A stretch of 64,000 bases of DNA from a virus, in IMG/VR virus record IMGVR_UViG_3300021964_000018, positions 64,001 to 128,000 of that record; one strand, written 5' to 3'. Shown here in pieces: positions 3 to 54,269 of this stretch. The translations under genes were made by a program, and so were the position numbers. Position 1 is the stretch's first letter. Every line of letters begins with the position of its first letter. Below the pieces are notes generated by a model. That model was not told where the DNA came from, did no database searches, and saw only the letters and a list, made by a program, of their open reading frames with translations.

Positions 3-3000
3 GCCGGTACTGCGCTCTCCGGAGGTGGATCTTCTGGTGGTGTAACTGTCAACTTAGATTTGAGTGAATTGTCTGCTGTTACCCCTACTTTATTAGATAG
101 TTTAGCAACCCTCGATTCAGATGGCTCAACTCAACAAAGGACTACAATATCTAATTTGGCAGCAATTCAAGCAGGTTCAGGTATAGGTTCTGATTCTGGG
201 CAATTGACAGCTGACTTGAATAGTTTGTCAATAGGAACAATTGTAGGCGCTGATTCTATTGCTTTTATTGATGCAGATGACAATGTAACTAAAAAAGATA
301 CAATAGGAGACTTTTTAACAGCTGTTGCCGGGAACGGCATAAGTGTATCAAGTAATCAATTAGTAACAGATTTAAATGAATTATCAGATACCGCTATTAA
401 CACTGCAAATGATAGTATAATTTTCATTGACGCAAACGATAATGCGACAAAAAAAGACACAATCGCAGATTTTGTCTCTGGAATAGCTGGTTCTGGTCTT
501 TCAGCAAGTTCAGGACAATTGTCAGTAACAGGTTTAGATGTTTCTCAAGGTGGTACAAATTCAACTTCTTTTTCAGATAAATCTGTTATTATAACTCAAG
601 ATAGCGGCACAGATACTTTGATTGCTGAGCCTATGACGACAAACGGATCTCTTTTAATTGGAGGTACATCAGGTCCTGCTGCATCAACTTTAACTGCTGG
701 AACAAATATTTCTATAACTAATGCTGATGGTTCAATTACAATAACTGCATCTGGCGTTGCCCCAGGAGCTGCAGGAATTGATACACAAGTTCAATTTAAT
801 GATGGTGGCTCTGCATTAGGGACAGATTCTAATTTTACTTTTAATAAGGCAAATGACGCTTTGTCAGTAACAAATATTTCTGGTTCATTAACACAATTAA
901 CAGACGGTACTTCGTATCTTATTGCATCTGGGTCAACAACAATTACATCTCAGTCTAATGGTGCTATAAAAATAAGTTCTGTAAATAGTCAGTATAATGC
1001 CGGCGACGGTATAAGATTAGTCGGAGATACATTATTTGAAGCCGATCTTAAAGAAGGCGGAGGGCTAGAATTCAACATAACGCAAATTCAAGTTAATGAT
1101 TCTATTGTAGCTACACTAACAGGATCCGATTTCTCAGGCACGGTAAAGGCTCCTGCATTTTCCGGATCTTTAACTCAACTTGAGGATGGAACTTCTTATC
1201 TTATTGCAGGAGATAATGTAACAATTGTATCCGAATCTAATGGTTCAATTACTATTAATTCAATAATGAATTCAACAGAAATTGTAGCGGGTTCTGACAC
1301 ACAAGTTCAATTTAATGATGGGGGTTCATCTTTCGGTTCAGACGCTAATTTTACTTTTAATAAAACAACTGATACATTATCTGTTACAAATTTATCTAGT
1401 TCATTAACAAGATTGACGGATGGAACTTCTTATCTCGTTGCTGGTAATAATATAACAATTACAACTCAATCAAATGGATCAATCCTTTTTTCTTCGACTG
1501 ATACAAATACAGAGTATACAGCAGGTAATGGTTTAGACTTAATTGGAACAGAATTTTCGCTAGATCTTAAATCTAATGGAGGGCTTTTAATTGATTCGAC
1601 TGAATTATCAATAGATGATTCTGTTGTTGCAACATTAACAGGTTCACAATTTTCTGGTAATATTGGAGCGACCGGTTCAATTGAAGCAACGTCATTTTTT
1701 AGTGGTTCAATGTTTAAAGCACCTGTGCTAACCGGTTCATTGACTCAATTACATGATGGATCCTCTTATTTGATTGCAGGAAATAACATAACAATTACAT
1801 CCCAGTCAAATGGTTCAATTATTATTTCTTCACAAGATGATGATACATTATATACTGCGGGTACAGGCTTGATTTTAGACGCAGGTGAATTTTCAATAAA
1901 TGACTCTATTGTTGCAACATTAACAGGTTCACAATTTTCTGGAACTATTATAGCACCTTCATTTTCCGGATCTTTGACACACCTTGAAGATGGTACTTCT
2001 TATCTTATTGCTGGAACAGATATATCAATAACAACAGGATCAAATGGTGCTGTTACAATTTCATCAACTGGTGCCGGTGGCGGAGGATCAATTGATGTTG
2101 TATCAGGCTCAACATCAGTTTCTACAGTTTCAACACTTGCAGCATCTGACGGTTTCATCTTAAATGATGAAGGCAGTGGTAGGGCAGCATTAACCTCATC
2201 AATTGGTATATCAGAAGATGGCGATTACACAGATGGATTATTTACAGATTTTACACCACAAACACGTTTAGGCATTGCAATTGACCGATTTAATGAAATA
2301 CTTAAACTTCTTGCTCCTTCACCTGCACCTGCATTAGATGACATTGATGTAAATGTTGATGGAACTGATGCTTATCTTTCTTTTGGCGCCTCGAATGATT
2401 TAGGAGGCGAAGCAACTCCATATTATTCTGTTTCTACGACAGCAGGTTTTTCAGCAGTCGACGTTAATGAATTATATGAAACTGACGTAAGCAGCAATAA
2501 TTTAAGAGCAGCAATATTTGCAGGAGCAACAGAAATTGTTGGTGATCTTAATGAAGATGTTTCAGCTGATGGAGATAATTATCCTGCTAATTCTTTTGGT
2601 AATGCAGATCAAGGTGAACTAAGGTTAGAAATAAACGGATCAGTTATACACACAGTCGATCTTACTTCATTTACAGGCACAGGTGATCCAGGTAGCGGAA
2701 CCGCAGTTACAAATTCAACAGGTTCTTGCTTTACTAATTTTTCAACTGCAGCAGCAGGAACACTAGATAATGGAACAGCGTTTCCTAATTTTCAACACAG
2801 GACAGGTCGATATAAAGTAATTACATCGGATCAACGTCAAGGATGGAATTATCTTCGTGTACTGCACGTTTATGGAACAACAACAATTACAACAAATTAT
2901 GTTGAATGGGTTAACGATGCTGATTCCAATGCACTTGCAGCTGCTGATAATTCTTTAACATTTATAGGATCAGGATCATTACATCTGTCAGGAATTGAAT

Positions 3001-20314: not shown

Positions 20315-20384
20315 TAATAATTAATAGTTATTACTAGCATTATGAGGTACAAATATTATAAATTAAACTAAGTTTTGCACCACG

Positions 20385-20422
20385 TGTAAATGTGCCACAT
20401 ACAAATTATAATTTGTATGTGG
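20385..20422 (+). promoter_or_regulatory. dnaE promoter (TGTAAA-N16-TATAAT) with 28-bp perfect palindrome over the -10 box
   Basis: CCACATACAAATTA|TAATTTGTATGTGG at 20395-20422. Confidence 0.65.
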
Positions 20423-23400: not shown

Positions 23401-23960
23401 CATTACATTCACTAAAAGAAATGTGGGATGGAACGATTAAAAATCACCGTCAGCTGCATGAAATTATTATTGAAAATTATGTTCTGCTTAAAAAATCTCG
23501 ATGGGGTATGACAATTCGTCAGGCCCAAAAGAAAGATGCACCTGACTTTTTCTTGCAATTAATTGATGATACAGCTGAAATTGAAGATTGGAATCGATTA
23601 GAAAAACTACAAATGTATCAGGATTTATGTTCAGCGACTCGTGATGACCTCGCATTTCCTGAAGAAATGTTAACTAAAATTCAATCATCAGGCGTCAAAT
23701 CAGTTTTACAGTTCGCGCCTGGTGAAAAATCAATTGGTTGGTTTTGTGTGATTGAATGGATTAAAAAGACAACCAAGAATAAGAAAACCTTTTATCGAAT
23801 TAAGATAACTGATAATCAAAATAATACAGGTTGGCTTCGAATGTGGGGTAATAAGCCTAGTTCAATGACTCCTTATTCTATCTGGCTGACTAAGGCGCAT
23901 AATGATCCGAATTGGGGTGCTTCAACAAGTGTCGCAAAAGTAAGACCTTTAATTGTGTAA
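20448..23960 (+). CDS. dnaE: DNA polymerase III alpha subunit (C family)
   Basis: PHP domain (LHCHS, ALTDHG, ADSHY); PARGSGGGSL, ERFL, PDIDSD, HAGG, KFDFLGL, YGFNKSHA motifs. Confidence 0.95.
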   Translation: MPVLIPPPTKFVGLHCHSGFSVYDGLGYPADHIDFVLENGMDAWALTDHGNGSGLAHAHKHAEKLRKKGVKYRQIYGCEFYFVPSLKQWRGDYEQAKIDRAAAKQKAIKEEEEGGHIIENEEETKTFKLSNDEWKRRYHLVITAQNAEGLSNLFTLIKRAYTDGFYRYPRIDFDLLKKYGRGLNVSTACLGGIYSNRIMRGNALKLSDEQIQSELLQLSDRFVDAVGEDNFYLEVQFNRLKQQHLVNHHLLRHADQTGIPLLATADSHYYSPDKWEARELYKKLGWMGADPSPLPEFEDLKCELYPKNAEQMWGEFTRHYDEYEDTYKGYEEKIKGAIERSYEIAWDKCEDCWIDTSVKLPDFNSPESSAFQKLGKKVKEALVKEELHKKPEYVARAKAELEDIKYLGFENYFLVMNEVFHKAADHTLFGPARGSGGGSLVNYLLGITQVDPLKYDLLWERFLGRHRTSWPDIDSDAGDRDALINAARELYGNEAVIPVSNFNTLKLKSLVKDIAKFYGIDFGEVNKMTGPLQSEVMAQARDENTEKSVFVLKHADCMKYSKGYREFMEKYPKVKDHLEALFMQNRSVGRHAGGVIIGPPEDLERSMPIIGVRGELQTPWTEGMNFRNLEDNGFIKFDFLGLTLLKDVENCISRIITRETGKKPTFLEIRDWFDKHLNCRYVTQDDEKVWKHVYHQRRKTGVFQFTAEGARKFCENAKPTTIEELAALTAIYRPGPLRANVHKKYVKDKANAENIEYAHPIIKEILGTTFGHVTFQEQFMLLAQKLGGFSPAESDKLRKTLVKKSLDTMGKKGDEREAARIKFVTGAKEINGVPEHVSQELWERIEFFSVYGFNKSHAIAYALDSYYAAWLHTYYETDWLGTILESENNNPDALAKAISEIKAMGFEVSTPDINESGIAWTWSENKKAFIPPLTSIKGLGKNAVKEIFENRPYESIDQMLFNEEGKWYHSKLNKTGFAALCKVEALHSLKEMWDGTIKNHRQLHEIIIENYVLLKKSRWGMTIRQAQKKDAPDFFLQLIDDTAEIEDWNRLEKLQMYQDLCSATRDDLAFPEEMLTKIQSSGVKSVLQFAPGEKSIGWFCVIEWIKKTTKNKKTFYRIKITDNQNNTGWLRMWGNKPSSMTPYSIWLTKAHNDPNWGASTSVAKVRPLIV

Positions 23961-23983
23961 ATTAAAAATATTTTAATTAAAAT
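23956..23983 (+). promoter_or_regulatory. TGTAAA-N16-TAAAAT promoter
   Basis: Recurring motif upstream of an AAGGAG SD. Confidence 0.6.
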
Positions 23984-42709: not shown

Positions 42710-42748
42710 AAGCTAACTTGTGTAAGTTAGCTTTTTTTATGTTATAAT
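42710..42748 (+). terminator. Terminator overlapping TGTAAG-N16-TATAAT promoter of the sigma gene
   Basis: AAGCTAACTT-gtgt-AAGTTAGCTT plus T-run; boxes at 42721 and 42743. Confidence 0.65.
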
Positions 42749-42775
42749 AATATTGTAAAAACCAAAGGAGAAAAA

Positions 42776-43522
42776 TTGAGTTATAATACAGCAATTAATA
42801 ATTATTTTAAAAGTATAAGAAACATTCCTTTACTTACAAAACAACAAGAAATAGAGCTCGCAAAAAAGATTGAGCAAGGAGACATAAAAGCAAAAAAGAA
42901 AATGGTTGAATCAAACTTAAGGCTAGCAATATCAGTTGCTAAAAAATATGCCAAATACGGATCTAGTTTAGAAGATTTAATTCAAGAATCCAATATTGGT
43001 TTAATTAAGGCAGTTGAAAAGTTTGATTGGCGGAAAGGTTATAAATTTTCAACATATGCAACTTGGTGGATTAAACAAGCAGCAACACGTCATTTAACAG
43101 CAAATAATACTTTATTAAAAGTTCCATCTCATACAATTGCAAATGCAAGTAAAGTTTGGAAACTGATTCAGTCTTATCAAGAAGAATTTAATACAGAGCC
43201 TACAATTGAAGAAATTTCCGAGATTCTTAACATACCAGAAAAACACGTTAAGCAGGCAATTGAATCTTTAAAAACGCGTCATTTAAAATCAATCGACAAA
43301 CCTGTTAGTGATGAAAACAACAGGACTTTAGGAGATATTCTTCCAGATAATGCACCAAGCATTGAAACATTAATGGATCAAGAAATTATCAGACAACAAA
43401 TAGTTACTGCATTTAAATCTTTATCTAAACGAGAAGAAATTGTTTTAAGATTAAGATTTGGAATAACTGATATTGATACTAATAATAATGAAATACATGA
43501 AATTAATAACGAGGAGGAATAA
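42776..43522 (+). CDS. Sigma70-family RNA polymerase sigma factor (regions 1.2, 2, 3, 4.1; lacks 4.2 HTH)
   Basis: [69 protein letters not shown], then stop. Confidence 0.9.
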
Positions 43523-43525
43523 GAT

Positions 43526-43834
43526 ATGTCAATGCCAAAAGGATATAAAAAAGAAACAGGTTATGGAACAACAAAAGCATTAGGAGGTTTATCTTATCAT
43601 GCAATTGCTAATGAAATGAATGAAAGAAACTATAAAATGAACCATTCGACTGCAAGAAATTTATTTGTAAACGCATTGATGAAAATCGCAGAAAACATAT
43701 GTAATGTTTATAATCAAAAGTTTGATCAAGAAAAAATTAAAAAGATTGCAATCGATCCAAGATTTCAAGAATCAGTTGCAGAATACATGAGAGAAATTGA
43801 ATATGAAGCTGAATCACGAGATACTAATAAATAA
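43526..43834 (+). CDS. Sigma region-4.2-like HTH protein
   Basis: LSYHAIANEM...MNHSTARNLFVNALMKIA. Own GAGGAGG SD; in frame with the sigma ORF. Confidence 0.55.
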   Translation: MSMPKGYKKETGYGTTKALGGLSYHAIANEMNERNYKMNHSTARNLFVNALMKIAENICNVYNQKFDQEKIKKIAIDPRFQESVAEYMREIEYEAESRDTNK

Positions 43835-44072
43835 TATTGCCAAAGAAACAGAACTTTTAGAGTCATTAGAATGGGATTATGAAGTTTTAGATGAATTATA
43901 TAAATATTTAGATATTCACTTTTCAGGTGATAGTATTATTACACCTGATTTAATTCTTCAAGAAGTCAAAGAAAAGTTTGGTGAAGAGTGCGAAAAAGTT
44001 TTACGTAAATTATTTGTTGAGGTATCTATAACAAATGGATTACACATATATGACCCAGACATTGAAAATTAA
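43803..44072 (+). CDS. Hypothetical protein
   Basis: ORF in operon. Confidence 0.5.
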   Translation: MKLNHEILINNIAKETELLESLEWDYEVLDELYKYLDIHFSGDSIITPDLILQEVKEKFGEECEKVLRKLFVEVSITNGLHIYDPDIEN

Positions 44073-54191: not shown

Positions 54192-54269
54192 ATAATTTTA
54201 TATAAATCTTTAATATCTCTAACTTTAACAAATAGTTATTGTTAGAGATATTTTTTAATTGGAGAAAAA

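Follow-up and report, generated by a model that had tools for sequence, protein, structure and literature searches.

A predicted two-subunit sigma factor, apparently divided inside domain 4, in an uncultured marine jumbo phage

The IMG/VR virus record IMGVR_UViG_3300021964_000018 represents 141 kb of an uncultured marine jumbo phage, with a CheckV completeness estimate of 54%. Bases 64001-128000 of this record constitute the 64,000-nucleotide stretch analyzed here, which we refer to as the window. On its plus strand, it carries two adjacent open reading frames (ORFs), a truncated RpoD-like sigma factor of 248 residues (ORF1, 42776-43522) and a small partner protein of 102 residues with a predicted helix-turn-helix (HTH) motif (ORF2, 43526-43834). 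Domain 4 of a sigma factor is normally one compact unit, which serves both to recognize the -35 box and to hold sigma on the beta flap of the RNA polymerase (RNAP). In the phages described here, the sigma polypeptide is truncated within this domain, ORF2 is a separate cistron, the pairing of the two is deeply conserved, and the operon is preceded by a conserved bipartite promoter. We favor, and consider reasonably probable, the reading that ORF1 and ORF2 are a two-subunit sigma factor split inside domain 4, with a composite domain 4 and specificity for a GTGYAA hexamer at the -35 position. If true, bacterial promoter recognition would gain a new architecture, a domain 4 made of two chains, and the system would show a phage that keeps host-like -10 reading while installing a -35 specificity of its own.

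ORF1 starts with TTG at 42776, preceded by the sequence AAAGGAG at 42764-42770, and ends with TAA at 43520-43522, about 16 residues past the sequence "LRLRFGI". In Pfam, it matches Sigma70_r1_2 (PF00140; E 1.6e-11, 44.4 bits), region 2 (PF04542; E 3.3e-22, 78.5 bits versus a cut-off of 24) and region 3 (PF04539; E 2.1e-9, 37.8 bits), all above their cut-offs, and the PF04542 match is the sole one in the 141-kb record. Likewise, PHROG 351 (RNA polymerase sigma factor) matches with E 1.4e-69, and the best PDB profile matches are SigA and RpoD. The only match to Sigma70_r4, at residues 139-161, was rejected as a cross-hit on the HTH of region 3. Over regions 1.2 to 4.1, ORF1 shares about 37-42% identity with canonical sigma factors, and its alignments to SigA, RpoD and RpoS, from tblastn and from PDB profiles, end just past RFGI, at residues 230-236 (profile positions 231-242 in the PDB matches to SigA and RpoD). 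ORF1 thus comprises regions 1.2, 2, 3 and 4.1, and a complete region 4, with 4.1 and the HTH of 4.2 on one polypeptide, is not found in it. A preliminary description of this locus had claimed that the RpoD-like ORF stops shortly after region 4.1, and Pfam, tblastn and the PDB profiles all bear this out. The truncation is also characteristic of the clade: the 120 nearest sigma homologs are all 212-280 residues long, region 4.1 and an acidic tail of the D..NIYEI type are conserved, and region 4.2 is missing from the sigma polypeptide in every member examined.

In the window, the stop codon TAA of ORF1 is followed by GAT and then by the ATG of ORF2 at 43526, and the two ORFs share a frame. ORF2 has, as the same description stated, a Shine-Dalgarno site of its own, GAGGAGG, which we read at 43511-43517 on the plus strand, within the last sigma codons. 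The protein contains LSYHAIANEMNERNYKMNHSTARNLFVNALMKI. When modeled alone with AlphaFold2 (AF2), it reaches a predicted local distance difference test score (pLDDT) of 82 and forms helices at residues 24-33, 40-61, 68-75 and 78-99, of which the first two make up the predicted HTH. In the family alignments, the most invariant stretch is the near-invariant KMNHSTARN, which covers the HTH turn together with the opening turns of the predicted recognition helix. An N-terminal peptide (MxMPKGYK..GY) is conserved across the family, as is a C-terminal motif (IAIDPRFQ), which sits in the two further helices. Both the ORF2 N-terminus (43526-43594) and the sigma tail (43475-43519) are conserved, yet predicted to be disordered in the fusion model described below (pLDDT <50); they may clasp the two subunits together or contact RNAP.

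ORF2 could not be assigned to any Pfam or PHROG family, the best PHROG being one of unknown function (E 0.0037). Neither about 50,000 GenBank phage records nor 185,579 species genomes, which cover bacterial genomes and prophages, yielded a homolog, and the lineage is therefore known from metagenomes only. One 118-residue protein (P0243, L009:130-486) consists of an N-terminal half that matches the RNAP omega subunit (Pfam RNA_pol_Rpb6, E 4.4e-16) and a C-terminal half that matches positions 23-92 of the ORF2-family profile (E 1.4e-9). Either the assembly is chimeric, or this is a natural omega::ORF2 fusion, which would tie the family to RNAP; as the protein lies on a single 622-bp scaffold, we set it aside as evidence.

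To follow the arrangement through the lineage, loci were gathered from IMG/VR, from JGI and Tara metagenomes and from ENA/Logan contigs, and the junction was measured in each. Of the 107 loci with enough upstream DNA to judge, 106 have a truncated sigma ORF ahead of ORF2. The junction ranges from an overlap of 14 nucleotides (nt), seen in 13 loci, to a gap of 58 nt in 104 of these 106 loci; L032 (210 nt) and L109 (303 nt) fall outside this range, the sigma ORF of the latter being only partly matched. Relative to sigma, ORF2 lies in frame 0, 1 or 2 in 32, 39 and 35 loci, respectively. All three stop codons, TAA, TAG and TGA, terminate the sigma ORFs, and ORF2 starts with ATG in 105 of the 106 loci, with GTG assigned in the GC-rich L032. 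The shared frame, which had been pointed out for the window, is therefore real there but incidental, as relatives use all three frames and even overlap.

The pairing also extends to distant relatives, whose gene surroundings differ considerably. Among ORF2 relatives with 26-31% identity, some of them from soil, it is kept in four of six informative contexts (a further one, L139, was too short to judge): in L011, a 42-kb contig with a sigma that ends in ...LPEKERDVLLLRYKII...; in L032, a GC-rich phage with a sigma that ends in ...LTDKEAAIVKLRFGLL...; in L136/L137; and in L134/L135 from a soil metagenome, where the L134 sigma matches only positions 1-17 of the 50 in Sigma70_r4. The sigma-ORF2 arrangement on the soil contigs L134 and L135 indicates that it is not confined to marine phages.

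A fused form was not encountered. One homolog search returned 248 ORF2 homologs of 89-104 residues, and a profile search of 1.84 billion representatives yielded 311 ORF2 clusters at 50% identity. Nearly all proteins in the best 150 of these 311 are 46-160 residues long; the longer exceptions are a 216-residue protein, matched over its first 68 residues only, and a 4429-residue repeat protein with weak partial matches. None of these best 150 clusters contains a sigma-ORF2 fusion, and neither a word-indexed search restricted to longer proteins nor the 120 nearest sigma homologs revealed one. Taken together, the pairing is far beyond chance, and the split is real, ancient and conserved: ORF1 and ORF2 are separately translated, jointly encoded polypeptides, as in a two-subunit factor. 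Assembly error, fused relatives and lack of an HTH in the small ORF, which had been named beforehand as grounds for abandoning the idea, were all looked for, and none was found.

Structure prediction suggests what ORF2 contributes. Its AF2 model alone gives weak matches to sigma domain 4 and to other HTH domains (Z 3.2-4.6), those to sigma factors being domain 4 of SigL, SigW, SigE and SigR (Z 3.2-3.9). Foldseek with ORF2 alone found nothing at E <= 0.001 in the PDB and BFVD, and its best viral match is an uncharacterized 72-residue protein (E 0.08). In the ESM Atlas, the named clusters nearest to ORF2 are all small viral Sigma70_r4 proteins (scores 0.81-0.87), which we regard as a lead only. 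As a proxy for co-folding, we aligned 19 natural in-frame read-throughs, with the stops read as Gly (alignment A3), and folded the window version with AF2. The resulting model has an overall pLDDT of 72, a disordered linker at residues 233-267 and a pLDDT of about 80 in the ORF2 HTH. Full-length sigma factors are collinear with this model up to their C-termini: model residues 1..313-320 correspond to 93..612/613 in Sigma70 and to 53..323-329 in RpoS. With 240-254 residues, these alignments exceed the 232 residues of ORF1 up to RFGI and thus comprise more than ORF1 alone supplies.

In a search of 48,161 PDB representatives, model residues 200-232, from ORF1, and 272-313, from ORF2, superposed together on isolated sigma domain-4 structures: on region 4 of E. 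coli sigmaE bound to -35 DNA (2h27_D; Z 8.2, root-mean-square deviation (rmsd) 1.5 Å, 69 of 69 residues, 28% identity, model 200..313), on domain 4 of SigC (2o8x_A; Z 6.8, rmsd 1.5 Å, 61 of 61 residues) and on that of SigL (3hug_A; Z 6.9, 79 residues aligned). In the model, the two 4.1 helices of ORF1 thus combine with the ORF2 HTH into a canonical sigma domain 4, and it is this predicted composite domain that makes a two-subunit sigma factor, as proposed in the preliminary description, the best reading of the locus.

A further line of evidence is the promoter. Ahead of the sigma operon, on the plus strand, the hexamer GTGTAA occupies the -35 position (42720-42725) and is followed by an extended -10 element, TGTTATAAT (42740-42748), with TATAAT at 42743-42748. 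In the intergenic DNA, TATAAT occurs 22 times versus 5 expected, and TGnTATAAT 3 times versus 0.2 expected; neither TTGACA (1 versus 3.4 expected) nor the Bacteroidota-type TTG-N19-TAnnTTTG is enriched there. Several TATAAT boxes have GTGTAA at the -35 position. The combination GTG[TC]AA-N16-18-TAnAAT is found seven times on the plus strand of the genome (0.95 expected) and not at all on the minus strand, and five of the seven copies are intergenic, 12-35 nt ahead of a start codon. Besides the copy at the sigma operon (42720-42748), intergenic copies of GTGTAA-N17-TAWAAT directly precede a gene for a 1170-residue DnaE-like protein (20384-20412), a kinase-TS fusion gene (23955-23983) and, at genome positions 5729 and 137010, two genes outside the window. 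The motif looks like a promoter class for replication and nucleotide metabolism.

In the relatives, 43 of the 60 distinct sequences 5' of the sigma gene contain GTG[TC]A[AT]-N17-TAnAAT, compared to a mean of 0.15 after shuffling. The spacer is always 17 nt long in these 43, with a free sequence, whereas almost no variation is seen at positions -23 to -18. In the 349 kb of loci, the gene strand holds 63 copies and the opposite strand none. GTGYAA-N17-TATAAT is thus a genuine bipartite promoter with a non-canonical -35 hexamer, and it fits a sigma factor with normal -10 reading and a replaced -35 reader. A new -35 specificity, as had been suggested, is plausible because the GTGYAA box is conserved at the -35 position. 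Its location upstream of the sigma operon itself may reflect positive autoregulation. The window copy coincides with a terminator-like hairpin after an upstream 70-residue ORF (42710-42739, plus strand, read from the sequence). Here, AAGCTAACTT and AAGTTAGCTT pair in a perfect 10-bp stem closed by the loop GTGT, with a T-run after it, and GTGTAA overlaps both the loop and the 3' arm. Several other copies of this promoter class also lie inside hairpins (e.g. at genome positions 61,4xx and 84,384), others do not. In many relatives (L018, L021, L022, L076, L111 and others), tandem A/C-rich repeats, with units such as AAACATTAAAC or ACTAAAAACTAAAC in 3-6 copies, make up the leader between the promoter and the sigma start codon, directly before the Shine-Dalgarno site; the window has none.

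From these data, we propose the following mechanism. ORF1 and ORF2 would form a two-subunit sigma factor that acts with the host core RNAP; a search of the 141-kb record, which is 54% complete, found no RNAP subunits. The 248-residue subunit would provide core binding and -10 reading through regions 1.2 to 3, which include an RpoD-like motif, and would also contribute region 4.1, the initial helix pair of domain 4. The 102-residue subunit would be translated from its own ATG in tight coupling to the sigma gene, and its HTH is predicted to dock on the 4.1 helices and thereby complete domain 4 non-covalently, so that the pair could bind the beta flap. The recognition helix HSTARN... of ORF2 would then read the -35 position. 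Its likely target is the lineage-specific GTGYAA-N17-TATAAT promoter, with ORF2 presumably contacting the GTGYAA box, and this promoter would drive the sigma operon, DnaE and nucleotide-metabolism genes. As a candidate cognate promoter, it makes the system directly testable in vitro.

Several observations weigh against this reading, among them the comparisons at the sequence level. Pfam (PF04545, PF08281) matches neither ORF2 nor the read-through, and Sigma70_r4_2 (PF08281) matches just 3 of 73 ORF2 family members, with a best E of 0.07. PDB profile searches with two ORF2 family alignments (A1, A2) returned no sigma factor, and the profile of the read-through fusion (A3) stops aligning to PDB sigma factors at region 4.1. 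In hhalign comparisons with a region-4 profile that combines full-length sigma factors of phages or prophages (10 sequences), ORF2 reaches P values of only 0.17-0.39. The sole stretch aligned there places ARN..M.KIA on (V)RQI..AL.KL, which is the register proposed earlier by eye; in this register, R44 and N45 of ORF2 fall at what we take to be R588 and Q589 of sigma70. The by-eye alignment of ORF2 with region 4.2 consequently lacks statistical support in sequence, while structure and context speak for it, and the profile check of 43526-43834 against Sigma70_r4 that had been suggested gave no match. No significant similarity in sequence joins ORF2 to region 4.2, and the proposed origin of the pair by gene fission is therefore not borne out.

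The structural evidence has its own weak points. The composite domain comes from one AF2 model of an artificial fusion, computed from a shallow alignment of 19 sequences, with a predicted template modeling score of 0.41 and no predicted aligned error, and AF2 may just be completing a familiar fold. The turn of the ORF2 HTH is longer than usual. In addition, region 4.2 begins with TLEEV, to which the NIYEI of the sigma tail shows a weak alignment, and this sits uneasily with a clean cut. Furthermore, two of the distant ORF2 homologs (L033, L138) have no sigma gene within about 2.4 kb upstream. Lastly, the promoter drives the sigma gene itself, so that a host sigma factor may read it.

Some of these points are shared by an alternative that we regard as unlikely but deserving of attention, namely that ORF1 is a -35-independent sigma factor, active on extended -10 promoters, and that ORF2 assists it without rebuilding domain 4, as a linked HTH or helical cofactor. 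ORF2 might then bind the beta flap, as gp33 of phage T4 does, or act as a classical activator or repressor. The missing sequence similarity to region 4 would be expected in this case, some promoters do carry TGnTATAAT, and the two extra helices and the N-terminal peptide, all conserved in ORF2, are absent from region 4.2. However, region 4.1 of ORF1 is well conserved, and its helices, if left unpaired, would expose their core. The composite domain is predicted at an rmsd of 1.5 Å, a hexamer placed exactly 17 nt 5' of the -10 element argues that something reads the -35 position, and ORF2 matches no gp33-like PHROG or Pfam family.

It is rather improbable that a different protein completes the sigma factor, with ORF2 in an accessory role as a regulator, a chaperone or an anti-sigma-like protein. 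The candidate, which counts against ORF2 as the missing half, comes from the most complete related record (G001; 236,652 bp, 77% complete): an 81-residue, Cys-rich protein (L126:1375-1620) matches Sigma70_r4 at positions 18-49 with 38 bits and thereby complements exactly the positions 1-17/18 kept by the sigma ORFs. It has six Cys within its first 32 residues, possibly for metal binding, and ends in ...TLQDIGDIFKVTRMRICQIEKNAIKKLK; relatives occur on 13 viral contigs. In a variant of this explanation, both small proteins could be alternative, exchangeable -35 readers. No homolog of the 81-residue protein and no further region-4 sequence were found in the window's own 141-kb record, although this record is only 54% complete, and the protein is present in just one of the nine related records searched, the other eight being fragmentary. 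In G001, it is unlinked, lying about 165 kb from the sigma-ORF2 pair, whereas ORF2 adjoins sigma in 106 of 107 loci, and the AF2 read-through model already completes domain 4 with ORF2. We favor ORF2 as the partner because of this strict linkage and the fold prediction.

A broader version, in which the sigma core from region 1.2 to 4.1 serves as a docking platform for exchangeable -35 modules, strikes us as an equally long shot: ORF2 would direct it to GTGYAA-N17-TATAAT promoters, and another small protein, for instance the 81-residue Cys-rich one of G001, or none, to other promoter classes. If so, the phage would time its gene expression by swapping half a domain. Finally, a single fused sigma factor, produced by read-through, frameshifting or an alternative code, or hidden by a sequencing or assembly error, has next to no chance of being correct: the window ORFs are in frame with only TAA GAT between them, but the near-even use of three frames, the overlaps and the varied stops across the 106 loci exclude all of these, ORF2 has its own Shine-Dalgarno site and, in all loci but L032, an ATG, the loci are independent assemblies from many samples, and TAA terminates most other genes here under table 11.

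Divided sigma factors are known from several systems. In SigO-RsoA of Bacillus subtilis (YvrI-YvrHa) and Sig7-Sig8 of Tn916, regions 2 and 4 reside on separate proteins, and both systems are minimal, group-4-like factors (bioRxiv 10.64898/2026.10.01.756105). The ORF1/ORF2 pair shares with them the adjacent genes and, as predicted here, the placement of -10 and -35 functions on separate proteins. By contrast, ORF1 is RpoD-like, with regions 1.2, 2, 3 and 4.1, and is cut inside domain 4, such that ORF1 and ORF2 would assemble a single four-helix domain from two chains, while SigO-RsoA is split between whole domains. No sequence relationship was seen between ORF2 and RsoA or Sig8.

Among phages, T4 gp55 comprises region 2 only and gp33 does not read DNA; the T4 late promoters lack a -35 element and need the sliding clamp, and gp33-type proteins are thought to take the place of domain 4 on the beta flap (reviews). 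Further divided factors are gp34/gp33 of SPO1 and, as proposed, MtvS1/2 of Francisella; in each of these known systems, the cut runs between domains. The lineage described here resembles T4 gp55 and gp33 (with the gp45 clamp) and SPO1 gp34 and gp33 in combining a phage sigma factor that lacks a -35 reader with a small helical protein. Unlike gp55, however, ORF1 is nearly full length, and unlike gp33, ORF2 has a predicted DNA-reading HTH and is associated with promoters that carry a conserved box at the -35 position; searches of PHROG and Pfam returned no match between ORF2 and gp33 or late-transcription co-activator families. The parallel to gp55/gp33 drawn in the preliminary description is therefore a loose one, as the split there falls between domains.

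With regard to the group 1 and 2 sigma-70 factors RpoD, SigA and RpoS, the predicted fold of the read-through is collinear to their C-terminus, but ORF1 itself lacks their region 4.2. ORF2 is also reminiscent of the 'minimal sigma' factors of jumbo phages, which are small, stand-alone Sigma70_r4/HTH proteins (PMC7824862): it is a small phage protein for which a sigma-4-type HTH is predicted. Unlike these, it is not recognized by Pfam Sigma70_r4, has extra conserved N- and C-terminal parts and is linked to a truncated sigma factor. As the division does not lie between domain 2 and domain 4, the ORF1/ORF2 pair is a variant, rather than a member, of the SigO-RsoA, Sig7-Sig8 and gp55/gp33 families. 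We found no description of a sigma factor split inside domain 4 in the literature searched.

The GC content is 33%, and nearly every gene lies on one strand. A 5'-3' exonuclease, a GroEL-like chaperonin and two small ORFs lie 5' of the sigma gene, and on its 3' side, ORF2 is followed by small ORFs, a cytidylyltransferase-like gene and phosphomannomutase. A 261-kb Tara Oceans scaffold and other marine contigs share this gene order. An ORF at 43797-44072 encodes 91 residues, has no family assignment and shares 38 nt with the 3' end of ORF2; its counterparts in relatives (83-88 residues) keep both the position and the overlap.

A second motif is found in the intergenic DNA. The sequence CAAATAGTTA occurs at hairpin apices before structural-looking genes, at window positions 54232, 54835 and 56504 and at genome position 132569, and ATAGTTA is about 19-fold enriched in intergenic DNA. 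This motif is a candidate for a second promoter or regulatory class.

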